Origin: Candidatus Poribacteria bacterium
GTDB taxonomy: Bacteria > Poribacteria > WGA-4E > WGA-3G
Assembly: GCA_022827185.1 (NCBI GenBank)
Contig: JAJDTM010000046.1
Span: 68,644 to 132,643, forward strand
DNA length: 64,000 nucleotides
Direction of reading: 5' to 3'
The position numbers and the translations under genes are program-made. Positions within the stretch are counted from its first letter, which is position 1, and each line of letters starts with the position of its first letter. A model generated the notes under the pieces. That model was given only the letters and a program-made list of their open reading frames with translations, was not told where the DNA came from and searched no databases. Below, piece after piece: positions 33,688 to 53,015 of this stretch.

Positions 33688-33807
33688 TATGAGGTATAGA
33701 TGCTCCTATGTTTGGCTGCCGTGGTGTGTTGGCATACAAATTATAGACTCTTTTTCTAAGTGTGGCACGAAAGATAGTGTGGTATCAATTTTTGGTTTGA
33801 GGTAGAT

Positions 33808-34659
33808 TCAGGACCAGACGAACACTTCGTTATCGTCGGGAGAATATCCGATAAAAACCGCCAAGACGATTCGGGCGCGCGTGCCTTGCACAGGTGGTAC
33901 TTCATGGATACATCGCGTGTTGAAAAAGTAGAGATCGCCTTGCTGTAGATCGACCTGATAGTTCTCTATCCCATTTTCAGCGGCGTACCTGTCAAAGGTT
34001 TCCTCGGCGATATGGGGTTGAATTTCCTCGGACCAGAGGCACCGATGTAGGATGGCTTGTGTGCCTTTTCCGTTTTCGTCGGCGTTTTGGACGCATAGTA
34101 CGCCAGCAAACTGGTGTTCAAAACGATAAACTTCATAATTAGTGCGCTGCTCGCGGTACTTGACGTGATCGATGTGTGGCTTATAACTATGCGTTTCGTA
34201 ATGGACTCTGAAGATGGCGGGCCCGTAGCGTGCGCCATCGGGTTCACGCGCAGTTTTTACCTCTTTTCCCGGTGAAAGTGCTGTGAGCGAGTTGTAGATG
34301 AGATCGACTGGATCATCAAATCCATCAAATAGGAAGCTAAAGAGGTGTTCTGTTGCTTGCGCGTGTGCCAAAAATTTTGCCTTATCACTGCCACGATTAC
34401 CGAGGCTGGTGCCGATGTCAATGCGGGTGCGGTTATCAACGGAGTTGGTATCGGCTTCGTCGCGCATCAAGCCCATATTTGTGAACCGATGGATAAGCCC
34501 TTGGCACTGTGTCGGTGAATATGCATTTCGGAGAATGATGGCTGGCACTTCGGCTTGGGAGAGCGCGTAAATTGGATCGCTATAGGTTTGGCAAACTGTT
34601 TCAAGATCAGGCTCCGCTGGGAGCCAATTGCTTTGGGTACTCATGGGAACCTCCGTCAT
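33808..34659 (-). CDS. 2-oxoglutarate/Fe(II)-dependent oxygenase superfamily protein (putative)
   Basis: An HxD...H facial triad candidate (HIDHV ... IHEV). Otherwise there is little similarity I can name. Confidence 0.4.
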   Translation of the reverse strand: MTEVPMSTQSNWLPAEPDLETVCQTYSDPIYALSQAEVPAIILRNAYSPTQCQGLIHRFTNMGLMRDEADTNSVDNRTRIDIGTSLGNRGSDKAKFLAHAQATEHLFSFLFDGFDDPVDLIYNSLTALSPGKEVKTAREPDGARYGPAIFRVHYETHSYKPHIDHVKYREQRTNYEVYRFEHQFAGVLCVQNADENGKGTQAILHRCLWSEEIQPHIAEETFDRYAAENGIENYQVDLQQGDLYFFNTRCIHEVPPVQGTRARIVLAVFIGYSPDDNEVFVWS

Positions 34660-34714
34660 GAACTCCGTAGTAGGGTCGAGGTAACCTCGCCCCTACAGGT
34701 GCCGCTGCATACAT

Positions 34715-35554
34715 TTAGAAGCGCGGGTTGAAGAGATAATCGTAATCGTCTATTTTTTCTTTAGCGAAGTCAATAAACTCGGCATTATGGTCGAGATCAC
34801 TATTTTCAAAGGCGGCTTCGCATCCAGTTTTATACTTCAGTTTACGGTTGGATCCGAGCCAAGAGACACGGTGAATCATTGCTATCATGTGGCGAGGCTT
34901 GTCGGACGGGTTGGGGACACCTCGGTGCCAGAGTCGCATGTCTCGAATCAGGATGCTTCCCTTCTTCGCATTTCCACGAATGGGTGGCGCGATTTTACGG
35001 CGTGCCTCCTCTTCTTCAGCCTCTATGCCGCGCCCACTGACCACCAGATGTGAGCCTGGCCAGAGTTCAACACTGCCATTCTCCTCCGCTGTATCCTGAG
35101 GTGAAATATTAACAACGACCTCTGTGGTCGGGTGTGCGACCTCCTGATCTGGCCACAGATGGGCACCGTCTCTGTGGAGTGGTTGGGTTGTGCTACCGGG
35201 ACAGTTCGTATTGCCGTTGTAAAAGTTGTTATAGAGGCCGGGACCGAGAAGTTCTGTCGTTACTTGTATGACATAAGGATTCGCAACGATGTCTCTAAAG
35301 ATATAGGGTGCGAAAGGTGGGGGGCCCTGCTGAAGGTGCCCCTTAAGTCCGCCCGCCCCACCCCATTTTTCGGCTTTAATGAGGATCTGCGAATCTGCGT
35401 CCATCCGTTTGTGGAGAATGTCCAAGTGTTCATGGCTAACGACGTTTTCTAAGACCACATAGCCGTCGACGCGAATCGCCTTGACGGCTTGTTCCACATG
35501 GGCATCTGTCAATTTTTCTGCTTCTAATTCTTTCGGTTGAACGGTTATCTCCAT
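34715..35554 (-). CDS. Phytanoyl-CoA dioxygenase (PhyH) family 2OG/Fe(II) hydroxylase
   Basis: HxD (LHRDGAH) plus a distal His (LWHRG), and a size (~279 aa) consistent with PhyH/EctD-like enzymes. Confidence 0.6.
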   Translation of the reverse strand: MEITVQPKELEAEKLTDAHVEQAVKAIRVDGYVVLENVVSHEHLDILHKRMDADSQILIKAEKWGGAGGLKGHLQQGPPPFAPYIFRDIVANPYVIQVTTELLGPGLYNNFYNGNTNCPGSTTQPLHRDGAHLWPDQEVAHPTTEVVVNISPQDTAEENGSVELWPGSHLVVSGRGIEAEEEEARRKIAPPIRGNAKKGSILIRDMRLWHRGVPNPSDKPRHMIAMIHRVSWLGSNRKLKYKTGCEAAFENSDLDHNAEFIDFAKEKIDDYDYLFNPRF

Positions 35555-35568
35555 AATGTTGTTTTCCT

Positions 35569-36921
35569 TTACCCAAAAAATTCAACATAGAGGGCTTGAA
35601 CAGCGGTCTCCATATCTTCGGATTTTATACCGAACATCATGCTGACTTCGTTGGAACCTTGATTAATCATCTCAATGTTCACATCGGCACCGGCTAACGC
35701 ACTTGTGGCGCGGGAGGCGATGCCGACAGTGTGACGCATGCCTTCACCGACAACCATAATCAGAGCCAGGTTTCGTTCTACGAAGACGTCTTCAGGTGCA
35801 AGTGTTTGTCGAATTTGTTCAATAACCCTTTTTTCTTTCTGCACTGACAGGTTTTCTTCGCGGATAATGACTGACATGTTATCTATACCAGACGGAACGT
35901 GCTCAAAAGAGATTTCTTCGGCTTCCAGTATCTGCAATAATCGTCGGCCGAACCCGATTTGACGGTTCATCAGGTATTTGCTGAGATATATACAGCAGAC
36001 GTTCTCCATTGCAGCGATACCAACGACCGGAATGTCTGTTGATTTGCGGTTCGGGAGGATTCGGGTGCCATCTGCGTCTGGATTGTTAGTGTTTCGGATG
36101 TTAACAGGTACGTGTGCGCGATAGACGGGTTCAAGTGCTTCATCATGGAAGACAGAGAATCCGGCGTAAGAGAGTTCACGCATTTCACGATAGGTTAACT
36201 CGGCGATCGGTGTGGGGTTTTTAACGATAGACGGATTCGCCGCAAACACAGAATCGACATCGGTAAAATTCTCATACACCGCCGCCCGAACAGCACTTGC
36301 AAGGATAGCACCTGTGATGTCTGAACCGCCGCGCGAAAAGGTGACGATGTTTCCCTGTCTTGAGTAACCGAAGAAGCCGGGGAAGATAGTGATACCCGGA
36401 TGTTCTTGCAGCGTCCGCAGGCGATTATACGCTTCCGGTAAGACTTGTGCATTACCGGGTTCATCGGAAAGCAATAAACCCGCGTCCTTCGGATTCACAT
36501 AATGTGCATCTACACCGCGTGCCTGCAGCACTTGTGCGATAAGGCGTGCGCAGTTGTCTTCACCCCCTGCTTTCATTGTGTCCATATAGAGATCCGCATC
36601 AGTTGTACTATGTTCCAACCGTTCCGTCAGATCGCGGGCGATGGGTTCAACAACCTCTGCGGAGAGTCCTAATTCAGCGGCGATGCTTCGGTAACGTTCA
36701 ATCACTTCGGCGCATTCCGAGGCACCAAGTTTTCCAGCGAGACGTTGTGATGCTGCGGCAATGAGCAGATCGGTCACTTTGATGTCTTGGCTGTGCCGTT
36801 TTCCGGGTGCGGAGACGACGATGAGGCGGCGTCCCGGGTCAGCGGTGATGATGTCGCAAACTTGGCGCACTTGTTCCGCTGATGCGAGGGAACTCCCGCC
36901 AAACTTTGATACTTTTAACAA
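35569..36921 (-). CDS. lysC: Aspartate kinase
   Basis: An N-terminal KFGGSS motif, the amino-acid kinase fold and C-terminal ACT-like regions. Confidence 0.85.
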   Translation of the reverse strand: MLKVSKFGGSSLASAEQVRQVCDIITADPGRRLIVVSAPGKRHSQDIKVTDLLIAAASQRLAGKLGASECAEVIERYRSIAAELGLSAEVVEPIARDLTERLEHSTTDADLYMDTMKAGGEDNCARLIAQVLQARGVDAHYVNPKDAGLLLSDEPGNAQVLPEAYNRLRTLQEHPGITIFPGFFGYSRQGNIVTFSRGGSDITGAILASAVRAAVYENFTDVDSVFAANPSIVKNPTPIAELTYREMRELSYAGFSVFHDEALEPVYRAHVPVNIRNTNNPDADGTRILPNRKSTDIPVVGIAAMENVCCIYLSKYLMNRQIGFGRRLLQILEAEEISFEHVPSGIDNMSVIIREENLSVQKEKRVIEQIRQTLAPEDVFVERNLALIMVVGEGMRHTVGIASRATSALAGADVNIEMINQGSNEVSMMFGIKSEDMETAVQALYVEFFG

Positions 36922-36948
36922 TCCGGATCCTCCAATCTTTTATTTTCA

Positions 36949-37036
36949 GGACTTAAGCATTTTTCTATGATAACCTATGTATTACGCACTGCAGGTGGGG
37001 TTTCAAACCTCACCTGCAGTGGGGGCTGCGTAAGTC
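36949..37036. repeat. Family-B element, full copy
   Basis: GGACTTAAGCATTTTTCTATGATAACCTATGTATTACGCACTGCAGGTGGGGTTTCAAACCTCACCTGCAGTGGGGGCTGCGTAAGTCC. The stem is mutated relative to 26184 but complementarity is preserved. Confidence 0.7.
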
Positions 37037-37086
37037 CTAATTTTTTGTGACACCGTGAAGTCGTTTAGGGTTTCAGCGTGAATAAA

Positions 37087-37806
37087 CTATTTTTTTAGAT
37101 GTGAAACATGTGTGCCTTCGGCTGGCTCAAACTGTTGTGAATTTTCGCCTTTGTAATGGCATATAAAACTCCGCCGCCATCGGTCGTGCGTCTTGTTCAT
37201 ATAGGAGCCGTGGATAACCTTACCATCAAAGAAAAGCGCGTCCCCGGGCGACATGTCGATGCCCAATTCTTTAGCGTTCTTCGGTTTGACGGCTTGTACA
37301 TTTGTAAACGAAATAGCGGTATCCGCCGCTTCAACGGAGAACAGTCCATGTTGATGGGAACGTGGAATCAGCACCATACGTCCAACAGCGTCGTCGGATG
37401 TATCCAATGCGACCCAAACGCCGATGAGGGGGTCTATGGTGATGTACTGCTCATCTTGATGGAGTGCCTGACCGCGTGCACCGGGCGGTTTGAAGTAGAT
37501 CATTGTTTGTAACAGCACTGGCGTATCGTCAATGAGTTGTTCCGTAATGTTAAGCAGGTTGGTATCTGCTGCCCATTCTTGGGTGAGTTCGTCCCAGTTG
37601 TGCATATTAATCATGCGTGGGAATTGGTGATTTGGGTCATCGGCGTGGTCGGTTGTGCCGCCGGAGTCGCCGGGTTTCGGACCTTCTGCACGGCGTTTCA
37701 TGTAGTGCTCGCGCATTGACGTTACTGTGGCTGGGTCAAAAAGATTTGGAACGACCACGAAGCCTTGTTCTTTGTAGTGGTTTTGTTGTAGATGGGTTAG
37801 GTGCAT
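37087..37806 (-). CDS. PhyH-family 2OG/Fe(II) dioxygenase (ectoine-hydroxylase-like)
   Basis: HxD (ALHQDEQ) and a distal His (VIHGSY). Confidence 0.55.
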   Translation of the reverse strand: MHLTHLQQNHYKEQGFVVVPNLFDPATVTSMREHYMKRRAEGPKPGDSGGTTDHADDPNHQFPRMINMHNWDELTQEWAADTNLLNITEQLIDDTPVLLQTMIYFKPPGARGQALHQDEQYITIDPLIGVWVALDTSDDAVGRMVLIPRSHQHGLFSVEAADTAISFTNVQAVKPKNAKELGIDMSPGDALFFDGKVIHGSYMNKTHDRWRRSFICHYKGENSQQFEPAEGTHVSHLKK

Positions 37807-37990
37807 GGAAAGTGCTCCCGCAGATTGCCGATCCGTTTTGGATGCTGTTTTCGAGTCTATCTTTTAATTTTATGGTAATTTCGGATATTTGTCAAAGTTT
37901 TTTCTCTCTATGTGTGGAAGGTTTGGTTTCTTGTGATAGCACCCAAACCAATTAACGCTCACCACCCGTGAAATCAACAAACTCTATGCC

Positions 37991-40900
37991 ATGCCAGCAC
38001 TCCTAATTTTTCAGCACGGGCAGTCCTTGACCTTCGCTATTATCAACCGTAGACCGAGTCAGCGAGACGGGGCCCGCTATGTGCTTGAAAAGATGGTACT
38101 TATCAAGGATATTGACGTTGCCACTCCGCACCGCGCACACCTTGACATCTTGGCAGACCTGTCGCTTGATGCCCTCTATCACCGGCACGAATTCACGAAC
38201 TTCTTGGAGCTCCATCAGGCGTGGCAGCGGACGTTGGACACCTCCGAACTCAACAGACGTTTCTTCAAAGAGATTGCCGATTGGTATTTCTGGGCAGTTG
38301 ATAAGGTGACGTTTCCATCGGATGCAGGCGACGACAAGACTGTTCGTAACGCGACCTGCATCATCCGTTTGATTACACGGCTGATCTTCGTCTGGTTTCT
38401 CAAAGAGAAAAACCTTGTGCCGGACGCGCTTTTTAACGAGGAAGCTATTGCGGAACTGCTCACAAGTCTGGATGCTCAGGAAAGCACCTATTACAAAGCC
38501 GTTCTCCAAAACCTATTTTTTGCAACCTTGAATCAGGAGATGAACACACCTGAAAAACCGAACACCCGCAAGTTCCGAGGGGAGGGCCGGCAGCACTATA
38601 ACATCACTTCGCTCTACCGCTATAAGCGTTATTTCAAGGATCCAGACGCGGCACTGCGGCTGTTTGAGACGGTCCCGTTCCTCAACGGTGGTCTGTTTGA
38701 GTGTCTGGATAAATCCGCACCGGATGATGCGAAAACGATCTTGCGTATAGACGGTTTCTCTGATAGAGACGACAACCCGCTCTATGTGCCAAACGAACTC
38801 TTCTTCTCCGAACCACAGGCGGTCAATCTCAACGCCGTCTATGGCACGAAAAATAGCAGGTATACCGTGCGTGGATTAATCCATATCCTCAACCGCTACA
38901 AATTTACGATTGCAGAGAACACACCGATAGAGGAAGAAGTCGCATTGGATCCCGAATTGCTCGGACAGGTCTTTGAAAACCTGCTTGCGGCGTTCAACCC
39001 CGAAACCGGCACGACTGCGCGTAAACAGACGGGTTCGTTCTATACACCCCGCGAAATCGTCAACTACATGGTGGACGAATCCCTCATCGCTTATCTCAAA
39101 AACACAGTTCGTAGTAGGGCAATTCATTGCCCGTCGGAAACCAAACTCCGTCATCTCCTATCCTACAACGACGAACCCCACCAATTCACCGATACTGAAG
39201 TTGAACATCTCATCAACGCCATAGACACACTGAAGATTCTGGATCCCGCCTGCGGCTCTGGTGCGTTCCCGATGGGCATCCTGCACAAACTCGTCTTCCT
39301 GCTCGGTAAACTTGACCCGCGCAACGCTCAGTGGCGACAACGGCAAATTGACCGCGTCCAAGCTGCCATTGCTACATCAGAGAAGATTGACGATAGCACC
39401 TTCCGTGAAAGTGCTATTGCTGAACTGGAACGCGAAATAGAGAGCATCAACGATGCATTTGAACGCAATGCACTCGACTACGGCAGAAAGCTCTATCTCA
39501 TAGAGAACTGCATCTACGGTGTGGACATCCAACCTATCGCGACACAGATCGCTAAACTCCGGTTTTTTATCTCGCTGATCGTTGAGCAGAAAATTGACGA
39601 TACGCGCGAAAACCGCGGGGTGCGTCCGTTGCCGAATTTGGAGACGAAGTTTGTCGCAGCGAATACGCTCCTCGGTGTAGAGAAACCCGAACAGATGATG
39701 CTTCGCAACCCAGGGATAGACAGCAAAGAGAAGGCATTAGCGGAGGTGCGCCGTCGGCACTTCACTGCGCGAACACCACGCACGAAAGATCGCTACAGAC
39801 AACGCGATGCGGAACTCCGCGCCGAAATCAGCGGATTGCTCAAACGGGACGGGTTTCCGAGTGAGACGACTGAAAAGATTGCTCATTGGGATCCATACAA
39901 CCAGAACGCCTCCGCAGATTTCTTTGACCCAGAATGGATGTTCGGTATTACGGAGGGGTTTGATGTCGTGATTGGCAACCCGCCTTACGTCCGTCAAGAG
40001 AAAATCAAGCATCTCAAACCCACGTTGAAAAAGCACTATACCTGTTACACAGGCGCAGCCGACCTCTACGTCTATTTCTATGAGCGCGGGCTGCAACTGC
40101 TGAGTCCAAGCGGTATCCATACGTTTATCTGTTCTAACAGTTGGCTGGATGTCAACTACGGCGCGCCGTTACAGAAGTATCTCTTAGATAACACAGCGGG
40201 TGCGGTTATCTGCCATAGCGAAGCGGAACGCGAATTTGAGAGTGCCGACATCAACACCATCGTTAGCCTTCTCCAAAACGGCACCCCCGATGCCGATTCT
40301 CACTTCCGCTTTCTCACCTTCAAGACGTTCATCGGCGATCCAGATATAGAAAATCGTCGAGAGCGGACACGCACGTATACCGAGTTGGGACAAGCAGGCA
40401 CGCGGGACAACAGATACACAGGCGACAAATGGGGTGGGAAATACCTCCGCGCCCCGGACATCTACTGGACGATTTTAGAGAAAGGCAAAGATAAACTGGT
40501 ACGCCTCGGTGATGTTGCCGAGGTGAGGCGAGGGTTCACAACCGGTGCAAATGAATTTTTCTATCTTGACGCGGATCGGGTTCAGGAATGGGGTATTGAA
40601 TCGGAATATCTGAGGCACGTTATCAAAAGTCCGCGTGAGTGCAAAAGTATCCGTGTGGATCCGAGTCAGTTGCAGTTCAAGTTGTTTATGTGCCATGCAG
40701 ACAAGGCAGCATTGACAGGCACTGCGGCGTTAGAATACATCAAATGGGGTGAATCGCAAGGGTATCATCAGCGACCGAGTTGTAAAGGACGGGTGCGTTG
40801 GTGGGATTTGGGTGAAGAGTCTGGAAATAGTATTTTTGTTAAAGAAGCAGATGAAACTTCGGCGGTATTTTACAACCCTGACAACTATCTCGTTGATTGC

Positions 40901-41275
40901 CGTCTCTACTATGCGAATCTTTCTAATCACGTCCTTTTGTTCTTAAATTCTGTCATTGGCGCAATGTTCTTTGAGCTATACAGCCGTTCAGGACTTGGCA
41001 AAGGTGCAAGAAGTATGATGGTTTCGGATTATGAGGATGTTCCAACTTTAGAGAATATAAATGTAGATAAGAAAGCGACTGAGTTGGTTTTAAGGCAAAT
41101 TTGCCCTTTGTCTCCCCGAAAATTTGCTAATTCTGAATCTGAGTGGTCTACCCTTGACGCAATCATCTTTGATGCCCTTGATCTCACACAAGGTGAACGG
41201 GATGGTGTGTATGAAGCGGTTGTTAATCTGGTGGAATCTCGGTTGCGGAAGGCGCGGAGTTTGAAGGGGAAATAG
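37991..41275 (+). CDS. Eco57I/MmeI/PglX-like gamma-class N6-adenine DNA methyltransferase with its own C-terminal TaqI_C-type target-recognition region; no recognisable nuclease domain
   Basis: 1094 aa. The N-terminal helical region carries PFLNGGLFE. Motif X is GSFYTPREIV, motif I is LDPACGSGAFPMG, and motif IV is VIGNPPYV. The C-terminal TRD-type region reads VRLGDVAEVRRGFTTGANEFFYL ... RWWDLGEE ... LLFLNSVIGAMFFEL. Confidence 0.75.
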   Translation: MPALLIFQHGQSLTFAIINRRPSQRDGARYVLEKMVLIKDIDVATPHRAHLDILADLSLDALYHRHEFTNFLELHQAWQRTLDTSELNRRFFKEIADWYFWAVDKVTFPSDAGDDKTVRNATCIIRLITRLIFVWFLKEKNLVPDALFNEEAIAELLTSLDAQESTYYKAVLQNLFFATLNQEMNTPEKPNTRKFRGEGRQHYNITSLYRYKRYFKDPDAALRLFETVPFLNGGLFECLDKSAPDDAKTILRIDGFSDRDDNPLYVPNELFFSEPQAVNLNAVYGTKNSRYTVRGLIHILNRYKFTIAENTPIEEEVALDPELLGQVFENLLAAFNPETGTTARKQTGSFYTPREIVNYMVDESLIAYLKNTVRSRAIHCPSETKLRHLLSYNDEPHQFTDTEVEHLINAIDTLKILDPACGSGAFPMGILHKLVFLLGKLDPRNAQWRQRQIDRVQAAIATSEKIDDSTFRESAIAELEREIESINDAFERNALDYGRKLYLIENCIYGVDIQPIATQIAKLRFFISLIVEQKIDDTRENRGVRPLPNLETKFVAANTLLGVEKPEQMMLRNPGIDSKEKALAEVRRRHFTARTPRTKDRYRQRDAELRAEISGLLKRDGFPSETTEKIAHWDPYNQNASADFFDPEWMFGITEGFDVVIGNPPYVRQEKIKHLKPTLKKHYTCYTGAADLYVYFYERGLQLLSPSGIHTFICSNSWLDVNYGAPLQKYLLDNTAGAVICHSEAEREFESADINTIVSLLQNGTPDADSHFRFLTFKTFIGDPDIENRRERTRTYTELGQAGTRDNRYTGDKWGGKYLRAPDIYWTILEKGKDKLVRLGDVAEVRRGFTTGANEFFYLDADRVQEWGIESEYLRHVIKSPRECKSIRVDPSQLQFKLFMCHADKAALTGTAALEYIKWGESQGYHQRPSCKGRVRWWDLGEESGNSIFVKEADETSAVFYNPDNYLVDCRLYYANLSNHVLLFLNSVIGAMFFELYSRSGLGKGARSMMVSDYEDVPTLENINVDKKATELVLRQICPLSPRKFANSESEWSTLDAIIFDALDLTQGERDGVYEAVVNLVESRLRKARSLKGK

Positions 41276-41340
41276 ATTAAATTCAGTTGATATTTGTTCA
41301 CCAGATGTGGTATTATTAACCCAAAAGAGAGGATTAGGTA

Positions 41341-43398
41341 ATGGCGAAAAAAATATCAAAGCGTGTTAAAACACTAAGTGGGTTTATGAAATGGGTGGAA
41401 CAATTCAACGATGGGCAATATCTGTTTCGAGGTGTTTCAAAACACACTCACAAATTGGAAGCATCTGCTTATCGTCGTCTGCCAGAAGCGGAAAGAAATA
41501 ATCAAAATAAACTCCTCAAAATCAATCAGGAGTTGATAGATAAAGCACGTCTTCTGGGGCACGATCAGAAAGATGGACATTACCTTTCTGATTTAGAACT
41601 GTTGGCAGAACTTCAGCACTTTGGTGCTGCTACCTGCTTGATAGATTTCACACGTAGCGCGCAGATCGCACTATGGTTTGCTTGCCAACAGAGTTCGACT
41701 GGAGAAGCAAATGGAAAAGTCTTCGCTGTGCGTTCTGACGATCCCGTACTCTTTAGAACCATTACCCCTAAATTGGTAGTCGAAAAAGACATTGGTTACT
41801 TTTTTGAAGAGGATGAGAGCGGGATATCTCCGCTATATCAATGGCAACCCAAGCAACAGAATAATCGTGTTATCGGCCAGCAATCCATTTTTATATTCGG
41901 TGGATCTCAAATTGAGGTGGCAGCAGAATGTGTAATTCTAAAAAGTAGTAAATCAGAAATTCTGGATTCTTTGGACAACTCTGCAGGTATCACTGAAGCG
42001 AGTATATATCCTGATTTTGACGGTTTCGCGCGTCTACATGCCCAAAATAAGCCATACATTGAACCGAATGTTCAAAGTTATCTGCAACGCGGGACCGAAG
42101 CACACTTAGAAGGCAAGCTTGATGATGCAATTGCCTACTACAGTGAAGTTATATCACTACAGCCAAACACTTCTACGCTAACTATAGCTTACCAAGGTCG
42201 TGGTTTTGCGTACTTTTTCAAACGTGAGTTTGACCCCGCTATTAAAGACTTTACCAAGGCAATAAATTCTAATTCCAAAGATGCCGTAACTTATTACAGT
42301 CGTGGGACAGTCTATAGTCTTACACGCGAATTTGATCTCGCTATCGCTGACTATACTAAAGCTATAGAACTTAATCCTGAGTTTGCTGAAGTCTACGTTC
42401 ATCGTGGTGCTGCTTACATTGACAATAACAAAGTTGATTTGGCCCTCAAGGACTATAACAAAGCGATGGAGCTTAAACCCGATGACCCTGTTACTTATGT
42501 CAGGCAAGGTATTGCTTACGGCAAAAAGGGGGAAATTGACACAGCTATTAAAAATCTTGGTAAGGCAATAGAACTCAATCCAAAATTTGCAGAAGCCTAC
42601 GCTACTCGTGGTGCTGCTTACATTGACAAAAAGGAACTTGATTTGGCTATTAGCGACTGTACGAAGGCGATAGAATTAGACCCAACTGATGCTACAGTAT
42701 ATTGCTACCGCGGTCGTGCTTACAACGAAAAAGGCATTTTTAACGAGGCGATTGATGACTTGACTCAAGCGATAGAACTGGATCCACATCTTGCCGAAGC
42801 TTACCTGAACCGTGGTAATGCCTACGATCATAAGAAAGATTTCAACAAGGCGATTGGTGATTATACTAAAGCGATAGAACTGGATCCAGATGACACTGAC
42901 TTCTACTGCTATCGCGGTTTTGCTTACCAACGCAAAGGTGATCTCAATTTGGCAATTGATGACTTTACCGAAGCGATAAAGAGAAATCCGAACTTTGCTG
43001 AAGCTTATCTGGATCGTGGATGTATTTATGGAGAAATAAGAGATTTTGACAAGGCGATTAATGATTTCACCAAATTGGTACAACTCAGACCTGATGATAG
43101 CAGAGCATACACTGCTCGCGGTGTTACTTACCGCAGGAAAGGTAATTTTAACTTAGCGATTAATGACTTTAGTAGAGGAATAAAAGTAGATCCAGATGAT
43201 GCTAAAGCTTATTACCACCGGGCCGATCTACGATTACACTTAAGGGAATTCAAAAAAGCCAAATCAGACCTAACAACTGCCAGAGACATGGGGGTAAATA
43301 TTATCGCTGCATTCCATAATAGCTACGAAAGCATTGAAGATTTTGAGCAGAAAACCGATATTCAGTTACCAGAAGACATCGCCGCGCTCTTGACCTAG
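41341..43398 (+). CDS. FRG-domain protein fused to ~13 TPR repeats and a conserved C-terminal module
   Basis: An N-terminal FRG motif (QYLFRGVSKHTHKLEASAYRR) and 34-aa TPR units (..A..Y..A..LDP..A.AY..RG.AY...). The C-terminal ARDMGVNIIAAFHNSYESIEDFEQKTDIQLPEDIAALL is shared with three neighbouring TPR proteins. Confidence 0.65.
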   Translation: MAKKISKRVKTLSGFMKWVEQFNDGQYLFRGVSKHTHKLEASAYRRLPEAERNNQNKLLKINQELIDKARLLGHDQKDGHYLSDLELLAELQHFGAATCLIDFTRSAQIALWFACQQSSTGEANGKVFAVRSDDPVLFRTITPKLVVEKDIGYFFEEDESGISPLYQWQPKQQNNRVIGQQSIFIFGGSQIEVAAECVILKSSKSEILDSLDNSAGITEASIYPDFDGFARLHAQNKPYIEPNVQSYLQRGTEAHLEGKLDDAIAYYSEVISLQPNTSTLTIAYQGRGFAYFFKREFDPAIKDFTKAINSNSKDAVTYYSRGTVYSLTREFDLAIADYTKAIELNPEFAEVYVHRGAAYIDNNKVDLALKDYNKAMELKPDDPVTYVRQGIAYGKKGEIDTAIKNLGKAIELNPKFAEAYATRGAAYIDKKELDLAISDCTKAIELDPTDATVYCYRGRAYNEKGIFNEAIDDLTQAIELDPHLAEAYLNRGNAYDHKKDFNKAIGDYTKAIELDPDDTDFYCYRGFAYQRKGDLNLAIDDFTEAIKRNPNFAEAYLDRGCIYGEIRDFDKAINDFTKLVQLRPDDSRAYTARGVTYRRKGNFNLAINDFSRGIKVDPDDAKAYYHRADLRLHLREFKKAKSDLTTARDMGVNIIAAFHNSYESIEDFEQKTDIQLPEDIAALLT

Positions 43399-43416
43399 CC
43401 AACGGACGAAAAAGAT

Positions 43417-43697
43417 CAACAAACCAAGAGTTTTCGCAGACTTCCACAACGCAGATGCAAAAGGCAGGGGTCCGATTGAACTGTGCCGGACAGCGGCGGA
43501 CCTTGAACGTCAGAAAATTATGCTGCGAAATGGATAGGCTCTTATTATCTATAGTGAAGAGTTGGAGGTTGAACGCATTGTTTGCTACTCCGAAAAAGAA
43601 AAGTTGTGGACAGGGGTGATTGATTGGGATGCCATTCAAGAGATAAAACCTGTCCCCTCTCAAATAACTCCGCAAATCCGTGACATAGCGCGGTAAT
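43417..43697 (+). pseudogene. Degenerate copy of the small protein gene found intact at 50794..51078 (no start codon, in-frame TAG)
   Basis: Nucleotide homology to 50806-51078 is ~90%, but ...CTGCGAAATGGATAGGCT has a TAG where the intact copy has CAG (Q), and there is no in-frame ATG. Confidence 0.45.
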
Positions 43698-43926
43698 GTG
43701 ATATACGCCTACACCTGATGAGATGGCTTCTTTTCAACTAATGCCTTAAGCATAGCATCGGGACGCGGTATTGTCTCATCGCGGATTGCACAGATTTCGC
43801 AGATTTTTTGAATCTGTATCATCTAGCATTATAGGTGACCGGTATGAAATCCGCGTCATCCGTACTATCTGTGCAAATCCGAGATTCAGACGATTGCGAG
43901 ATTTCATCCTCAAAGAAATTGGGATT

Positions 43927-46581
43927 ATGGAGAAAAAGCCGGTGAGTAAACCGTTAAAAGTGTTTATTACCTATTCACATAAAAATACAGCAGAAAAGGA
44001 CGAATTGATAACACGTCTTGCCCTTCTCAAACGTGAAGGCATAATAAGCATTTGGCATGACAACGAAATTCTGCCAGGTGACAAGTGGCGTGATGCTATC
44101 TTCAGCAATCTTGCGGATTCCGACCTTCTGCTCTATCTTACCTCTGCTGATAGCCTTGAATCTGAAAACTGTAATAAAGAATTAGCAGCGGCGTTAAACA
44201 CAGAGATAAGGGTGATTCCAATTATCCTTGAGCATTGTGATTGGCAAAACTATCAACTTAGTGACTTCCAAGCTCTTCCTGACAGAGGTAATCCTATTGA
44301 CGAATGGCAACCTGAGAGTAAAGGGTGGCAAAATGTAGTGGATGGTGTCCGAAAAGTTGTTGAAAGGCAGTCTGAGAATTGGTTTTCTGAAACCTTTGAG
44401 AAAGAACTTCGTGCTGAATCAGAGTTCCACCGTGGGAATGTTCAACAGCTGCTTGGGCAGCTAGAAATGGCAATAGAAGCCTATTCACAGTCCATTGACC
44501 TTAAACCTCGTGTTGCTAGTTCTTATAACAATCGCGGTGCTGCTTACCAGAAAAAAGGAAATTTTGATCGCGCCATTGAAGATTTTAACATGGCAATTGA
44601 ACTGAAAAACAACTATAGCCAAGCTTATTACAATCGTGGGCTCACTTACGACGAAAACGGTGAAATTGAAAAAGCCCTTGAAAACTATAATAAAGCGATA
44701 AAACTCAAACCTGATTATGCTGAAGCATATAGCAATCGAGGCAATATTTATAAGAAAGAAAGCAAGTTTGATAGAGCTGTCGCAGACTATAACATAGCGA
44801 TAAAACTCAGACCAGACCTTGCCGAGGTTCATTACAATCGCAGTGTAATTTACGAAAATGAAGGCGATTATGATAGGGCCATCCAAGATTGTAACACAGC
44901 GATAAAACTCAAACCCGATTTTCCCGAAGCGTATAACAATCGCGGTAACGCTTACATAGGAAAAGGTGAATTTGGCAATGCTATCGTGGATTATAATACG
45001 GCGATAAAACTCAAACCCGATTTTCCCGAAGCGTATTACAGCCGTGGTACTACTTATGGTATAACTGGCGATTCTAATAGCGCAATTAAAGACTTTGACA
45101 AAGCGATAAAACTCAAACCTGATTTTCCCGAGGCATACAGTAATCGCGGTAACGCTTACGTCTTTGAAGGCAAGTTGGAAAACGCTCTCAAAGACTACAC
45201 TGAAGCAATACAACTTAAACACGACTATGTTGATGCTTACTGTAATCGCGGAGCAGTTTATGGCATAACAGGCAATTATGACAGGGCAATCAAAGATTAT
45301 ACCGAAGCGATAAAACTCAATCCACACCATGCCAACGCCTATAATAATCGTGGAATGGCTTGGTTACACCTGCAAGAGTGGGATAGAGCCAAAACCGACT
45401 TCACAACTGCTAAACAGTTAGGCGTTGACATCATTGCAATGTTCCATAATTCCTACAAGGATGTTGAGACGTATCAAAAGAATCGGCTCGTCAAATTGCC
45501 GGAGGACCTTGCACTGCTGCTGACGCAACGCAGGCGGGATCGCTATCCGAAGCTGCAGAAAGTGTTGGATGCTGACGGCAATCCGCTGGAATTGCCGGAC
45601 GTGGTGAATTTACGCGAGCAGCTACGCAATGCTGGTCCCCAGCTAAGCGAGTACATCAATGCGAAGTCTGCCTTCGGTATTAATACGACCCCAACCGAGG
45701 TATTTGTGGTAGACAAAACGACACGGGATGAACTCATTGGGGCACATCCCGCATCTGCTGATATTTTGAAGCCGTTTTTGCACGGACAGGATATCAGACG
45801 TTGGTACGTTGATACACCGCAGCACTGGTTAATTTTTACCCACCGCGGTATAGCAATAGACGACTACCCGGCAATTTTGAAGTATTTGGAGAGTCATAAG
45901 GAGAGCCTACAGAAAAGAAAGGGTAAACAAGCATGGTACGAGTTACCGGCGTCTCTTGACCATGCGGAACGTTTTGCACAACCGAAACTGGTTTGTCCAA
46001 ACACCTATAACCATCACACTTTTGCGGTTGATACAGAGAGTTTTTATTACGGGAATACGTCTTACCTTATCCCAACCGAGGAAAAATGGCTTTGTGGGCT
46101 TCTCAATTCCCGGACTGTAGAGTGGTTCTATTCACAGGTGTCGAACCAATTGACGATTGATCCGCTTCGGGCGCGCAGCGGGTATATCCAACAGATTCCG
46201 ATTCCCGACATCACGCCAGTTCACAAAGCACTCATTGCTAAAATCGTTGACTACCTGATCTCTCTGCAGCAGCAACCGGAGATAAACAGCAAAGATTTGA
46301 AGTACGCCCGCGACCATGTGATGCTTGGATACTTTGAGCGCGTTATTGATGGATTGATTTATGAGGCTTACCTACCTGCGGAACTTCATAAGAGCGATAA
46401 AGTCTTCTTGCAACCGTTATTGGACGAAGGGTTGCCACTCATTGAAGAGATTCAGGGCAATAAAATGACTGCTTTCCGGGACATCTTTGAGCGGCTATAT
46501 GACAGGATGCATCTTGTCCGACGCCACCTTTATTATCTGGATGTTATAAAACCTATCCGCATTATTCAGGGGAAACTGTGA
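43927..46581 (+). CDS. TIR-domain protein fused to TPR array, the shared post-TPR module, and a C-terminal TaqI_C/Eco57I-C-like DNA target-recognition domain
   Basis: The TIR reads KVFITYSHKNTAEKDELITRL...ISIWHDNEILPGDKW...SENCNKEL. About nine TPR units follow. The shared module is AKQLGVDIIAMFHNSYKDVETYQKNRLVKLPEDLALLL. The C-terminus has GINTTPTEVFVV...GQDIRRWYV...HWLIFTHRG..YPAILKYLESHKESLQKRK..QAWYELP...KLVCPNTYNHHTFAVD..YY.NTSYLIP...LCGLLNSRTVEWFY...IQQIPIPD. I trimmed the start to ATG at 43927 (MEKKPVSKPLKVFITYSHKN). Confidence 0.65.
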   Translation: MEKKPVSKPLKVFITYSHKNTAEKDELITRLALLKREGIISIWHDNEILPGDKWRDAIFSNLADSDLLLYLTSADSLESENCNKELAAALNTEIRVIPIILEHCDWQNYQLSDFQALPDRGNPIDEWQPESKGWQNVVDGVRKVVERQSENWFSETFEKELRAESEFHRGNVQQLLGQLEMAIEAYSQSIDLKPRVASSYNNRGAAYQKKGNFDRAIEDFNMAIELKNNYSQAYYNRGLTYDENGEIEKALENYNKAIKLKPDYAEAYSNRGNIYKKESKFDRAVADYNIAIKLRPDLAEVHYNRSVIYENEGDYDRAIQDCNTAIKLKPDFPEAYNNRGNAYIGKGEFGNAIVDYNTAIKLKPDFPEAYYSRGTTYGITGDSNSAIKDFDKAIKLKPDFPEAYSNRGNAYVFEGKLENALKDYTEAIQLKHDYVDAYCNRGAVYGITGNYDRAIKDYTEAIKLNPHHANAYNNRGMAWLHLQEWDRAKTDFTTAKQLGVDIIAMFHNSYKDVETYQKNRLVKLPEDLALLLTQRRRDRYPKLQKVLDADGNPLELPDVVNLREQLRNAGPQLSEYINAKSAFGINTTPTEVFVVDKTTRDELIGAHPASADILKPFLHGQDIRRWYVDTPQHWLIFTHRGIAIDDYPAILKYLESHKESLQKRKGKQAWYELPASLDHAERFAQPKLVCPNTYNHHTFAVDTESFYYGNTSYLIPTEEKWLCGLLNSRTVEWFYSQVSNQLTIDPLRARSGYIQQIPIPDITPVHKALIAKIVDYLISLQQQPEINSKDLKYARDHVMLGYFERVIDGLIYEAYLPAELHKSDKVFLQPLLDEGLPLIEEIQGNKMTAFRDIFERLYDRMHLVRRHLYYLDVIKPIRIIQGKL

Positions 46582-48017
46582 AAATAACCAATATTAAGAT
46601 TAAAAATTTCAGAGCTTTTCCGCAAATCTATCACATCAATCTTCATAATGCGGGGAAGAACTTACTTGTTTATGGAGAAAATGGGAGCGGAAAATCGTCA
46701 CTGTATCTCGCCCTAAAGTATTTTCTTGAATCCGGTGTGCCCGAAAATAGCGAGGATGACAGGAACCGGGCGTTTGAAACCCATCAAAATATCTTTACCG
46801 AGGATCTTGGTCATATCAAACTTCATTTCCGTTCAGAGCCTCAACGAGAGAAAGATACCTATGAGTGGTCAAGAGATGTTAAACAGACAACTGACGAGCT
46901 GATTATTGAAACGTCAAAGGCGAAAGGCTTTCTGGACTACAAGGTGCTATTGGAAACACACTATCTTCATCGTGAAAACGATATTGTGAATTTGTTCGAT
47001 CTGTTGGTTGAAGTGCTGCTGGCAAACACTATCAACCCCAGGACAGATAGACCTCTCACAGCGGACTGGAACGCCATTCAGCCTCCGTTTCCTCGCAGAG
47101 GTGCAAAACACCAAATTGCGGACCTGGAAAGACAGATAGTCAACTTCAACAGGGAGTTAGCAAACAGGTTAGCAGAATTAAGTCCGAAGGTGTCCGAAAT
47201 TCTCAACAAGTTTGGATACAAAGTCGCGCTTGACTTTGATTTTCAAGGCGTTACGTACAACCAGGGTGAGAAAACGCTTGATAACCGAGAGATTCTCTTA
47301 AAAGTTGAATTTTTTGATACAGATATACCTTCACATCACCGATTCCTGAACGAGGCAAAGCTGTCAGCAATTGCGATTGCTATCTATCTTTCGTCAATCT
47401 TGTGCTTGCCAGAACCAAAAGAAGGCATGAAAATTCTTGCGCTTGACGATGTGCTGATAGGTTTGGATATGTCAAACCGTCTGCCGGTTCTTGACATTCT
47501 GAACGAGTACTTCTCAGATTACCAAATCTTCTTGACGACTTACGATAAGGCGTGGTATGAGATTGCTAAACAACGGACAGACCAAAAAGACTGGAAATAT
47601 GCTGAATTCTATTTCTCCCAAACCGATGAGTATGAAATTCCGGTCTATGCAGAAGATAAGGCATACCTTGAAAAGGCGCGGGAATATCTTGATTTGAATG
47701 ACTACAAAGCCTGTGCAATTTACGTCCGAACCGCTTTTGAAGCGGTAATCAAACGATACTGTGAGAAAAGGAATCTTGCCATTAAGTATCGTGAAAATCC
47801 GAAAGACTTGAGAAGTGAAGATTTTTGGGTACCGATAAAAATGGAAATGGACGAAGCGGGCGACCTCCTTTTAGATCTAAGAGTTGTTGACAAAATTGAA
47901 TTGGCACGAAAATTTATCCTAAATGAACTCAGTCATGATACCTTCGTGAATATCTACAGAAAGGAACTTGAGGATGCAATTGACGCGGTTGCGGAACTTG
48001 AAGCTGCTTTAGCATAG
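46578..48017 (+). CDS. SMC/RecF-like ABC ATPase (AAA_15/AAA_21-type), translationally coupled to the TIR gene
   Basis: A GTG start overlaps the TIR-gene TGA (GTGA). The N-terminus reads IKIKNFRAF..., Walker A is GENGSGKSS, the D-loop/Walker B is ILALDDVLIGLD, and the signature/His region reads QIFLTTYD. Confidence 0.7.
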   Translation: MKITNIKIKNFRAFPQIYHINLHNAGKNLLVYGENGSGKSSLYLALKYFLESGVPENSEDDRNRAFETHQNIFTEDLGHIKLHFRSEPQREKDTYEWSRDVKQTTDELIIETSKAKGFLDYKVLLETHYLHRENDIVNLFDLLVEVLLANTINPRTDRPLTADWNAIQPPFPRRGAKHQIADLERQIVNFNRELANRLAELSPKVSEILNKFGYKVALDFDFQGVTYNQGEKTLDNREILLKVEFFDTDIPSHHRFLNEAKLSAIAIAIYLSSILCLPEPKEGMKILALDDVLIGLDMSNRLPVLDILNEYFSDYQIFLTTYDKAWYEIAKQRTDQKDWKYAEFYFSQTDEYEIPVYAEDKAYLEKAREYLDLNDYKACAIYVRTAFEAVIKRYCEKRNLAIKYRENPKDLRSEDFWVPIKMEMDEAGDLLLDLRVVDKIELARKFILNELSHDTFVNIYRKELEDAIDAVAELEAALA

Positions 48018-48337: not shown

Positions 48338-49663
48338 ATGCGACCTGCATTCAGACAAGCAAAAAGTCAAATTCCTCAAGTCACTTGCATCTTGGAGAAA
48401 AACATGGGAAAAAAACACAGTCAAAAACGCGCCGAGATGTATTACAAGCACGGGTTCGCTCAAAGGAAAAAAGCGGATTATGAGCGTGCTATTGTAGACT
48501 TTACCAAAGCGATAGAACACAATCCAGAAGATGTCTTTGCCTATACGAATCGGGGTGTAGTTTATTACAACAAGGGTAAGTTTTACCGTGCAGTCGATGA
48601 CTTTAGCAAAGTCATAAGCCTCACACCTGATGATGCATTTGCCTACTATGGCCGCGGGATGGCTTACCGCAATCTGCTGATTTTTGAGAAAGCCATCCAA
48701 GACTTTAGCACGGCGATACGTCTTAAACCCGATACGGCTGCTGATGCCTATACCGAGCGCGGTGTAACTTATCACACCAAAGGTGATGTAGACCATGAAG
48801 GTGATGTAGACCATGCTATTGAAGACTATAATGCTGCGATAGCACTGGATCCAGCGTTTGCACAGGCTTGGACGGCGCGCGGTAAAGCTTATCGTGATAA
48901 AGGCGAGATTGACAAGGCAATTGAAAATTACAACAAGGCGATTGAACTCAACCCAGAACTCGCTGAGCCTTATACCTACCGCGGTCTTATCTACACCGAA
49001 CAAGGCGCGGTAGACAAAGCGATTGAAGATCATAGCAAAGCGATCACGTGCAACCCAGAGTTTGCCGAAGCGTACGTTAATCGAGGGCAGGCTTACTACG
49101 CCAAAAACGAATTGGACCAGGCGATAGCAGATTATGACAAAGCCATAGAGATCGATTCAGAACTTGTGGAGGCATACACGTATCGGGGCAACGCGTATCG
49201 CGCTAAAGTCGAGTTAGACAGCGCAATTGCGGATTATACCGAGGCACTAAAACTCAGACCAAAGATTGCTGAATTCTATTACACACGGGGTGAGGCTTGG
49301 TTGCTTGCGAAAGGTTGGGAAGAGGCGAAGACCGACTTGACAGCTGCGCTCCTACAAGACATGGATGTCGCCGCTGCGTTTCACAATATCCACGGGAGCA
49401 TTGCTGCCTTTGAGGAGAAGATAGGGAGTCGTTTGCCGAGAGAGATTGTAGTATTATTGACACCGCGGAGCGAACCGTTTGAAATTGATAAAGATGCGCG
49501 GATCGCGTTGGGAATGAAGTATTATGGAAACGACGAACTCAGCAGTGGACTCGCAGCGCGCCTTGCAGGTGTCCCACGCGAAGATTTCTGGTACCTAATG
49601 GGGGATTACGGTCTCTCTCTCCTTACCCTTGATGAAGAAGAGCACGCCAAGAGCGGATTTTAA
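48338..49663 (+). CDS. TPR-repeat protein with shared post-TPR module and C-terminal UPF0175-type antitoxin domain
   Basis: TPR units are followed by AAFHNIHGSIAAFEEKIGSRLPREIVVLL. The C-terminal ALGMKYYGNDELSSGLAARLAGVPREDFWYLMGDYGLSL matches the UPF0175 antitoxin fold pattern. An alternative start is ATG at 48404. Confidence 0.6.
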   Translation: MRPAFRQAKSQIPQVTCILEKNMGKKHSQKRAEMYYKHGFAQRKKADYERAIVDFTKAIEHNPEDVFAYTNRGVVYYNKGKFYRAVDDFSKVISLTPDDAFAYYGRGMAYRNLLIFEKAIQDFSTAIRLKPDTAADAYTERGVTYHTKGDVDHEGDVDHAIEDYNAAIALDPAFAQAWTARGKAYRDKGEIDKAIENYNKAIELNPELAEPYTYRGLIYTEQGAVDKAIEDHSKAITCNPEFAEAYVNRGQAYYAKNELDQAIADYDKAIEIDSELVEAYTYRGNAYRAKVELDSAIADYTEALKLRPKIAEFYYTRGEAWLLAKGWEEAKTDLTAALLQDMDVAAAFHNIHGSIAAFEEKIGSRLPREIVVLLTPRSEPFEIDKDARIALGMKYYGNDELSSGLAARLAGVPREDFWYLMGDYGLSLLTLDEEEHAKSGF

Positions 49664-49666
49664 AGA

Positions 49667-50158
49667 ATGCCGATACAACCAGTTGTTAGCAATAACAGTC
49701 CGCTTGTGGGACTTTTGGGGATCAATCTGCTTTCTCTGTTGCGAGATCTTTATACAGAGGTATGGATTCCACGAAAAGTTGAAAAGGAGTTTCTCAGAAA
49801 GGATCCGATAGTCCGCCGGGAGGCACTCGAAAATGCTCCCTGGATTAAAACTGTTGATTTAACGGATCCGCGAACCGCTGCGGTTCATGCGGAACTTGAT
49901 GAGGGTGAAGCCGAGGCATTGGCTCTTGCTAATGAACATGACGCTCGTCTCGTTCTTCTTGATGAAAAGAAAGGAAGACAGAAAGCCAAGCAAATTGGAT
50001 TAACGGCTATGGGGATAGTAGGCGTTTTGCAAGAGGCGAAGGAAGAAGGCTTGATTGATGCCATCAAGCCGCTTTTAATTCGGTTGCAGGATAACGGAAT
50101 CCACCTGAGCGAATCGCTCATCAATAACGCCCTACAAGACGCAGGTGAGGCAGATTAG
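49667..50158 (+). CDS. DUF3368-type PIN-domain protein (toxin partner of UPF0175)
   Basis: The conserved acidic residues of the DUF3368/PIN fold are present (VVSNNSPLVGLLGI..., ...DEGEAEALALA..., LVLLDEKKGRQKA). It starts 3 nt after the TPR-UPF0175 stop. Confidence 0.65.
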   Translation: MPIQPVVSNNSPLVGLLGINLLSLLRDLYTEVWIPRKVEKEFLRKDPIVRREALENAPWIKTVDLTDPRTAAVHAELDEGEAEALALANEHDARLVLLDEKKGRQKAKQIGLTAMGIVGVLQEAKEEGLIDAIKPLLIRLQDNGIHLSESLINNALQDAGEAD

Positions 50159-50793: not shown

Positions 50794-51078
50794 ATGATGA
50801 ATAAACCAAGAGTTTTCACAGACTTCCACAACGCGGATGCAAAAGGTAGGGTCCGATTGAATTGTGCTGAAACTGCGGCGGACCTTGAACGTCAGAAAAT
50901 TATGCTGCGAAATGGACAGGTTCTTATTATCTATAGCGAAGAGTTAGAGGTTGAAGGCATTGTTTGCTACTCCGAAGAGGAAAAGTTGTGGACAGCGGTA
51001 ATTGATTGGAATGCTATTCAAGAGATAGAACCTGTCGCCTCCCAAATAACTCCGCAAATCCGTGACATAGCGGGGTAA
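50794..51078 (+). CDS. Small conserved hypothetical protein (94 aa); intact copy of the pseudogene at 43417..43697
   Basis: The ORF is MMNKPRVFTDFHNADAKGRVRLNCAETAADLERQKIMLRNGQVLIIYSEELEVEGIVCYSEEEKLWTAVIDW... Both copies immediately precede a TPR-module gene. Confidence 0.4.
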   Translation: MMNKPRVFTDFHNADAKGRVRLNCAETAADLERQKIMLRNGQVLIIYSEELEVEGIVCYSEEEKLWTAVIDWNAIQEIEPVASQITPQIRDIAG

Positions 51079-52543: not shown

Positions 52544-53015
52544 TAATAGTCCGCTCGTTGCACTTTTAGGACTTGACCTTCTTTCTTTATTACGCGAACT
52601 TTACACTGAGGTATGGATTCCTGAAGAGGTCAAAGCGGAGTTTCTTGGGGTAGAAAGAATGCACCGCCTGCAGGCACTTAACGATGCTCCATGGATTAAA
52701 ACCGTTCATTTGACAGATGTAACGGACGTATCAACTTATGTGAGAAGCGGACTTGATCTTGGTGAAGCCGCCGTATTCGCGCTTGCCAAAGAACACGATG
52801 CTCAATTTGTCATTATTGATGAACTCAAGGCGCGACAGCATGCTGCGAGAATCGGATTATCTTTTAAAGGCACGCTTGGCATTTTGCTTGAGGCGAAGGA
52901 AGAAGGCTTGATTGATGCCATCAAGCCGCTTTTAATTCGGTTGCAGGATAACGGAATCCACCTGAGCGAATCGCTCATCAATAATGCCCTACAGGACGCG
53001 GGTGAGGTGGATTAA
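52518..53015 (+). CDS. DUF3368-type PIN-domain protein (second copy)
   Basis: It is paralogous to 49667..50158; the C-terminal 60 aa are nearly identical. I trimmed the start to ATG at 52518 (MPPRPIISNNSPLVALLG), which overlaps the upstream TPR gene end. Confidence 0.65.
   Translation: MPPRPIISNNSPLVALLGLDLLSLLRELYTEVWIPEEVKAEFLGVERMHRLQALNDAPWIKTVHLTDVTDVSTYVRSGLDLGEAAVFALAKEHDAQFVIIDELKARQHAARIGLSFKGTLGILLEAKEEGLIDAIKPLLIRLQDNGIHLSESLINNALQDAGEVD

Follow-up and report, generated by a model that had tools for sequence, protein, structure and literature searches.

A candidate single-chain immune sensor-effector with an FRG head, and its modular cassette family in Candidatus Poribacteria

We analysed a 64,000-nucleotide stretch of a Candidatus Poribacteria genome (contig JAJDTM010000046.1; hereafter the window, to which all coordinates refer unless a related locus is named) and in it a forward-strand gene at 41341-43398. 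This intact open reading frame (ORF) starts with ATG and encodes a 685-aa protein composed of an FRG domain, an array of tetratricopeptide repeats (TPR) and a conserved C-terminal module, here called Cmod. The gene is probably an anti-phage sensor-effector and not a one-off oddity. We estimate at about 0.5 the probability that it encodes a self-contained, single-chain sensor-effector of immune type. Sequence relationships place it as one member of a large, uncharacterised family of publicly sequenced Poribacteria cassettes; an identical copy of the protein is encoded on the ENA scaffold KELL22-1...scaffold_129.

The FRG head occupies 41341-42069 (forward strand, aa 1-243) and is a predicted NAD-targeting domain of the ADP-ribosyltransferase (ART) superfamily. 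A first-pass annotation, made from the sequence alone, had assigned the N-terminal ~230 aa to FRG, and the Pfam search bears this out: PF08867 matches aa 26-120 with E 2.9e-15 and 57.4 bits, compared to a gathering cut-off of 25 (58.9 bits for the domain alone). Fourteen models of PDC-S15, a PADLOC class of phage-defence candidates with an FRG domain, also match the head, the best being PDLC04938 (E 1.3e-30, 222 of the 276 model positions). Since these models span aa 7-231, the conserved head extends over ~240 aa. The FRG signature YLFRGVSKHTHKLEASAYRR lies at aa 27-46 and includes the (F/Y)RG motif in the form YLFRG (aa 27-31); the LQH..T..D motif is present as well. The conserved FRG residues of the head are R30, G31, Q92, H93, T98, D102, R176, Q180 and D225. 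R30, G31, H93, T98, D102, R176 and D225 are invariant in 87 divergent relatives and all are present here, while R30, H93, T98, D102, R176 and Q180 remain invariant or nearly so even in comparison with phage-borne FRG domains of only 26-35% identity. Such a set of invariant polar residues (R30, H93, T98, D102, R176, Q180) resembles an active site.

FRG had been described in the first-pass annotation as a domain of unknown function, a description to be qualified, since the Aravind group assigns it to the ART superfamily and predicts that it serves prokaryotic immunity as a NADase effector (PMC9503650). We modelled the head with AlphaFold2 (AF2) using a diverse alignment, and obtained a predicted local distance difference test score (pLDDT) of 93.8 and a predicted TM-score (pTM) of 0.90. 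A shallow alignment of 65-87%-identical homologues gave a pLDDT of 58, was unusable and was replaced by the diverse one. When the model was compared to the Protein Data Bank (PDB) with Foldseek, no match was significant (best E 0.23, TM 0.28), yet about 30 of the top 34 were ADP-ribosyltransferases, including exotoxin A (ExoA), PltA, ParT, Arr, cholix, RhsP2, pertussis toxin, TreTu and CARDS. Sequence methods gave no such relationship: single-sequence and profile searches with FRG found no relative among PDB sequences, relaxed Pfam scans with five diverse FRG domains found no ART-family match, and matches in PHROGs were to families of unknown function only. No ExE or STS motif is evident in the head, where the invariant or near-invariant positions are R30, T98 and Q180, together with H93, D102 and R176. 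Membership of the ART superfamily is plausible and consistent with the AF2 and Foldseek results.

The first TPR directly follows the FRG domain, at about aa 244. The array (42070-43200, forward strand, aa 244-620) is presumed to be a ligand-binding sensor and comprises two irregular units (aa 244-314) followed by nine canonical 34-aa units (aa 315-620); the exact 34-aa register runs on to aa 654 through a degenerate cap (aa 621-654). Pfam TPR_1 (PF00515) detects 11 repeats (E 1.6e-98), and Pfam TPR-S (PF20308) scores 33.2 bits against a cut-off of 27.6. Together with the register layout, the Pfam count gives 11-12 repeats where 13 had been announced. An NCBIfam match to MamA (203 bits for a threshold of 200) is a repeat artefact and was discarded; the other NCBIfam matches are generic TPR families. 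Across TPR units of the whole family, positions 5, 9, 12 and 13 show the highest entropy, along with 17, 19 and 22, whereas scaffold positions 4, 7, 8, 11, 20, 21, 23, 27, 28 and 32 are nearly fixed. Positions 5, 9, 12 and 13 belong to helix A and are the ones that classically contact ligands on the concave face of TPR domains.

The protein ends with Cmod (43201-43395, forward strand, aa 621-685), which consists of the degenerate last TPR and an extension of ~35 aa (GVNIIAAFHNSYESIEDFEQKTDIQLPEDIAALLT). The conserved part covers the last ~50 aa of the protein and terminates in EFKKAKSDLTTARDMGVNIIAAFHNSYESIEDFEQKTDIQLPEDIAALLT. Cmod is conserved and has no Pfam family, even at E = 10. Its similarity to the C-terminal module of the neighbouring TIR protein, pointed out in the first-pass annotation, is real (the two copies are 50% identical over 66 aa and share the invariant positions A..D..A...F.....LP....L); in the TIR protein, however, the module is internal and is followed by a TaqI_C domain. 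Nor is it restricted to these two proteins, since two TPR-UPF0175 proteins of the window carry it as well. Four window proteins thus share a TPR-Cmod chassis, with FRG, TIR or nothing as head and nothing, TaqI_C or UPF0175 as tail. Recent gene conversion among these paralogues was ruled out as the source of the shared module: the Cmod copies are 41-50% identical at the protein level and the TPR units 60-78% at the DNA level. A profile search with Cmod alone in a set of 5.8 billion proteins returned only fragments of less than 100 aa, which are uninformative on architecture, and the Cmod alignment was too variable for a genome scan.

To estimate selection, the ratio of non-synonymous to synonymous substitution rates (dN/dS) was calculated for the window gene against three collinear orthologues, from the related loci L036, L009 and L006; dS is near saturation and the values are approximate. 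The ratio was 0.20-0.26 for the whole gene, 0.08-0.15 for the FRG head, 0.23-0.33 for the TPR array and 0.07-0.18 for Cmod. Judged by these ratios, purifying selection acts on all three parts, and the TPR array evolves at 3-4 times the rate of the head. Together with the intact invariant residues, the ratios rule out a pseudogene. Upstream, a sigma-70-like promoter match (TTGATA-18-TATTAT with a TG extension; 41287-41316, forward strand) lies 25 nt upstream of the ATG. It is no more than a match to the consensus and constitutes weak evidence, because such matches are rarer across the region than in shuffled sequence.

Relatives of the gene are abundant. Hundreds of sequences are 65-88% identical to the FRG head, and an exhaustive HMMER search returned 3,372 cluster representatives at E <= 1e-3. 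One of these is a 686-aa protein with 88% identity across the FRG domain. A scan of one genome per species yielded 223 tblastn-confirmed loci, of which the best 80 are nearly all from Candidatus Poribacteria (two are from Latescibacteria), often with several per genome. The FRG-TPR fusion is not special to the island. It is the normal architecture of the clade, since 77 of the 87 FRG cluster representatives bear TPRs.

Two forms of the cassette recur. In the fused form, one chain holds FRG, Cmod and, between them, anything from ~3 to more than 13 TPR units. The split form has two genes with a 4-nt overlap, one for a 281-aa FRG protein that retains the first TPR-like hairpin and one for TPR-Cmod. 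The related loci contain 52 ORFs running from FRG to Cmod plus many split pairs. Among 116 distinct Cmod-bearing ORFs, the module is nearly always 0-5 aa from the C-terminus, the exceptions being fusions to TaqI_C (in the window, L085 and L005) or to UPF0175 (twice in the window, L037 and L036). Cassettes can also fuse end to end: on a Poribacteria chromosome (OY761015.1; L036, 10001-13297) an FRG-TPR-Cmod frame reads through into TPR-Cmod-UPF0175 as one 1098-aa ORF, and L033 has a comparable TIR-Cmod-Cmod ORF of 1107 aa. More distant relatives, stand-alone FRG proteins of ~240-290 aa lacking both TPR and Cmod, are found on 22 viral contigs.

These features suggest the following scheme. The FRG head would be the effector, a divergent ART-superfamily domain which most likely hydrolyses NAD+ or else ADP-ribosylates a target. 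The TPR array, whose concave-face positions vary among paralogues, would act as ligand-binding sensor and regulator, and Cmod would cap it and probably mediate self-association or docking. At rest, TPR-Cmod would keep the head inactive. When a protein of the invader, most simply of a phage, bound in the TPR groove, the head would be released or assembled, and the ensuing depletion of NAD+ or modification of a target would abort the infection. The conserved split into FRG and TPR-Cmod genes fits an effector/regulator pair, and the stand-alone viral proteins indicate that the FRG domain can exist without the TPR part. The faster, surface-focused evolution of the TPRs, the variable number of repeats and the tandem arrays of paralogues also speak for this scheme. 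The chassis would accept exchangeable heads (FRG, TIR) or tails (TaqI_C, or UPF0175 paired with a PIN toxin). In its combinations with TIR and UPF0175, it is each time attached to a predicted toxic activity or to the regulator of one. Most relatives have no conserved partner gene, which is consistent with a single-gene unit, as PADLOC classes PDC-S15.

Comparison with known systems helps to situate the protein. Its N-terminal 240 aa match several PDC-S15 models and carry both FRG motifs; these models mostly have 250-490 positions and phage FRG proteins are stand-alone, whereas here 11-12 TPRs and Cmod are added. PDC-S15 is itself a predicted class; in the searchable literature, where the papers found mention it just once or twice, we found no published phenotype for it, and likewise no functional study of FRG and no description of the cassette family. 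The nearest functional analogue known to us is DSR2. Proteins of this type combine, in a single gene and without NTPase, a SIR2 NADase head with a long helical-repeat sensor which binds a phage structural protein. The likeness lies in the logic and the order of the parts, an N-terminal head with NAD as its known or predicted target followed by C-terminal alpha-solenoid repeats. In contrast to DSR2, the head is FRG/ART-like and not SIR2, the repeats are canonical TPRs, and Pfam and PADLOC reveal no sequence relationship. Systems coupling repeat sensors (TPR-S or WD40) to STAND NTPases are attributed to Kaur et al. 2020 in PMC9503650, where that work is cited. Like these and the Avs-type NLR-like proteins, the present protein joins an effector head to a diversifying TPR sensor array, and it has the TPR-S match. 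However, no NTPase or STAND family was found in the 685 aa by Pfam or NCBIfam. The ATP-driven switch of such systems is therefore absent and the protein is not of the STAND/Avs type.

Some features recall Thoeris, which pairs a ThsB TIR sensor with a ThsA effector. The TIR domain encoded next to the gene matches ThsB in PADLOC (E 1.2e-29), TIR genes recur beside FRG-TPR genes and both heads are tied to NAD+ chemistry. But Pfam and PADLOC detect no SIR2, SLOG or Macro domain in the FRG-TPR protein, which is not a Thoeris member because it lacks a ThsA-type domain, and most FRG-TPR loci have no TIR gene. The UPF0175-DUF3368(PIN) pairs offer another parallel: in two neighbouring genes the TPR-Cmod chassis is fused to UPF0175, with a PIN gene next, which suggests that the chassis regulates toxic activities, although FRG-TPR-Cmod itself has neither domain.

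To examine the genomic context, hidden Markov model (HMM) and phmmer searches were run with the domains of the window on six-frame ORFs of 85 loci. Cmod follows FRG on the same strand in most of them. Immediately upstream of the gene, the window carries an Eco57I-type (type IIG-like) N6-adenine methyltransferase gene (37991-41275, forward strand, 5'-truncated), and a homologue of it is found in 21 of the 80 loci, always upstream and on the same strand; in 7 loci it directly adjoins an FRG gene. This methyltransferase is often trailed by FRG-TPR-Cmod and TIR-TPR-Cmod cassettes in tandem, in arrays of up to 4-5 cassettes; cassettes would accumulate in this way downstream of it. L006 contains four FRG cassettes, and in L015 a block of methyltransferase, TIR cassette and FRG cassette is present twice. 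L036 keeps the window order (methyltransferase, FRG-TPR-Cmod, TPR-Cmod-UPF0175, PIN) without the TIR and ATPase genes that lie between in the window.

Co-occurrence of FRG-TPR with TIR genes, suggested as a check in the first-pass annotation, was seen in 21 of the 80 loci, 7 of which have TIR-TPR-Cmod cassettes. In 16 loci, a 402-aa TIR_2 gene (PF13676) lies directly upstream of a subclade of 415-aa FRG-TPR-Cmod genes (for example L004, 8673-11248), and this pair stays together even where no methyltransferase is near. The 402-aa protein has a 260-aa C-terminal region of no known kind (partial match to PADLOC PDC-S66). Overall, a TIR gene or a methyltransferase is found in 30 of the 80 loci, and in 20 of the 62 that extend for 8 kb or more on each side. 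Within 10 kb, neither gene is seen at about two thirds of the loci; in these, the neighbours are assorted housekeeping genes (GFO/IDH/MocA oxidoreductases, PhyH, ThiI, ABC transporters, sulfatases) and a few transposases. Linkage to TIR and methyltransferase genes is far above chance, yet not obligate. The view that the FRG and TIR proteins are paralogous members of one system is partly supported, by the common chassis and by the loci with TIR; the majority of loci, which lack both partners, speak against an obligate system.

Several points weigh against an autonomous immune protein. The NADase assignment of FRG is a prediction and the role given to Cmod is wholly conjectural. About two thirds of the loci stand among housekeeping genes, outside recognisable defence islands, and sponge symbionts, to which these genomes belong, are known for 'eukaryote-like' repeat proteins, which would suit a role in host interaction. 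In such a role, the TPRs could bind a sponge protein and the FRG and TIR heads disturb host NAD+ or TIR signalling, for instance to avoid phagocytosis. The near confinement of the family to Candidatus Poribacteria, with a few metagenome-assembled genomes of Latescibacteria and Gemmatimonadota, would agree with such manipulation, as would the many paralogues per genome, the many copies among metabolic genes and the enrichment in TPR proteins that is reported for these symbionts. We nevertheless consider it improbable: inspection of the N-terminus by eye revealed no signal peptide or secretion motif, the genes are recurrently linked on the same strand to methyltransferase, toxin-antitoxin (UPF0175/PIN) and TIR genes, prophages carry the FRG head family, which is scored as a defence candidate, and the split pair, resembling a toxin and its regulator, fits an intracellular role. 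It is more doubtful still that FRG is not an NAD+ enzyme, and instead binds nucleic acid or protein or catalyses another reaction, the whole protein being a scaffold or regulator. The lack of a significant structural or sequence match to a characterised enzyme and of a canonical ART catalytic motif would be explained in this way. Against it stand the polar set R30, H93, D102, R176 and Q180, invariant across very distant relatives in the manner of an active site, the dominance of ARTs among the weak fold matches, and the published superfamily assignment (PMC9503650).

A subunit role in a multi-protein system, with the TIR protein and/or the type IIG methyltransferase as partner, is a possibility that we regard as unlikely, if less so than the two preceding ones. 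It can be imagined in a Thoeris-like version, where TIR would produce a signal derived from ADP-ribose and FRG respond to it, or in a restriction-linked version, where Cmod would dock TPR proteins onto the methyltransferase or its DNA-recognition domain (TRD) machinery and recognition of foreign DNA would fire NAD-depleting heads. The upstream methyltransferases and TIR genes counted above (21 of 80 loci each), the direct adjacency in 7 loci, the 16 pairs with the 402-aa TIR protein (some without methyltransferase) and the ThsB match of the window TIR all argue for some coupling. So does the fusion of Cmod to a TaqI_C TRD in more than 100 clusters, this TRD being homologous to those of methyltransferases from related loci. 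On the other hand, neither partner is within 10 kb at about two thirds of the loci, and unrelated defence genes commonly cluster without physical coupling. The window methyltransferase is truncated and has lost a PD-ExK-like segment, yet the FRG gene is under purifying selection. Finally, Pfam and PADLOC find in FRG-TPR neither SLOG, Macro, SIR2 nor another known domain for sensing a nucleotide signal. We retain the single-chain sensor-effector as the favoured reading.

A broader proposal, which we offer tentatively and hold to be unlikely, is that Poribacteria possess an undescribed modular immune repertoire built on a hypervariable TPR+Cmod chassis, in which Cmod would couple the cassettes to the methyltransferase and TRD, and foreign DNA or protein would fire NAD+ depletion. 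If true, this would amount to restriction in which abortive-infection heads supplement the 'nuclease' arm or take its place. FRG domains are widespread in prophages and defence islands, and their function is only predicted. In the family described here, the head is strongly conserved and has only a few candidate catalytic residues, and the natural fused and split forms would ease a toxin/regulator test; should FRG prove to be a NADase or an ART, the whole PDC-S15 candidate class would become interpretable. The common chassis also suggests a general plug-in sensor module, a possible route for uncultured sponge symbionts to diversify their immunity. The architecture is common in public data, and it and the proposed mechanism are what a specialist would expect of such fusions; what is new is the modular chassis, the methyltransferase-anchored rows of cassettes and the relatives fused to a TRD.

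Concerning the neighbouring genes, the window methyltransferase is 89% identical to one from another Poribacteria sequence. Its residue 2 aligns to residue 134 of the L004 homologue, and upstream homology persists for ~15 codons (37930-37990) before running into stop codons. With the missing segment, a PD-ExK-like motif ('FCAVELKD') was lost. In L036 and L004, where the gene is full-length, an HKD/PLD-SNF2 helicase gene (PADLOC C3a139, E 9e-126) comes before it; the window has no such helicase gene there, and a PhyH gene abuts in its place. G+C content is ~0.42-0.44 across 41000-48000, which includes the FRG, TIR and ATPase genes, compared to ~0.49-0.51 in the methyltransferase gene and those upstream of it; a foreign origin could account for the difference, as could simply the composition of TPRs rich in K, N, Y, D and I.

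Downstream of the FRG gene lies that for the TIR-TPR-Cmod-TaqI_C protein (43927-46581, forward strand), with TIR at 43927-44406, Cmod at 45373-45528 and the TRD, a 350-aa TaqI_C DNA-recognition domain (PF12950, E 8.7e-15), at 45562-46578. The Cmod-TRD junction is kept at 58-92% identity in more than 100 protein clusters, of which the best 120 were inspected, and also in L085 and L005. An origin by accidental in-frame fusion to a remnant methyltransferase is ruled out by this conservation. Among the best 120 clusters, most have TPR and PF12950, about 22 also TIR_2 and about 15 TaqI_C only. Cmod-TaqI_C proteins are thus a large, undescribed family of TPR proteins tailed with a DNA-recognition domain. 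The TRD has homologues among the TRDs of methyltransferases from related loci (27% identity, E 4e-29), but the C-terminus of the window methyltransferase is not homologous to it.

The TIR gene stop is overlapped by 4 nt by a gene for an SMC/RecF-like ATPase (46578-48017; AAA_23, with weak matches to LmuB, mad3 and AriA), which looks specific to the window since no homologue was found in any of the 85 related loci. Further downstream, on the forward strand, come a TPR-Cmod-UPF0175 (antitoxin-like) gene with a DUF3368/PIN gene (48338-50158, the former at 48338-49663) and a second TPR-Cmod-UPF0175 gene with a DUF3368/PIN-like gene (51134-53015, the former at 51134-52543). In both UPF0175 proteins, Cmod joins the TPR array to the antitoxin domain, so that the UPF0175 antitoxin in effect bears a long TPR sensor; the PIN genes belong to PADLOC PDC-S70. 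The two modules are paralogous, and the 3' ends of their PIN genes have 80% DNA identity and an identical hairpin.

Between these two pairs, a 94-aa ORF (50794-51078) has no match in Pfam, PHROGs or NCBIfam. A degraded copy, with 91-92% nucleotide identity, a lost ATG, an indel and an in-frame TAG, occupies the spacer between the FRG and TIR genes (43414-43714), and homologues are found inside the cassette arrays of L033, L004, L035 and L026. Upstream of the island, on the reverse strand (30808-37806), are genes for a 959-aa WD40 repeat protein, a WelO5-like halogenase, two PhyH dioxygenases and an aspartate kinase, which may form a small cluster for a secondary metabolite or for amino-acid modification.

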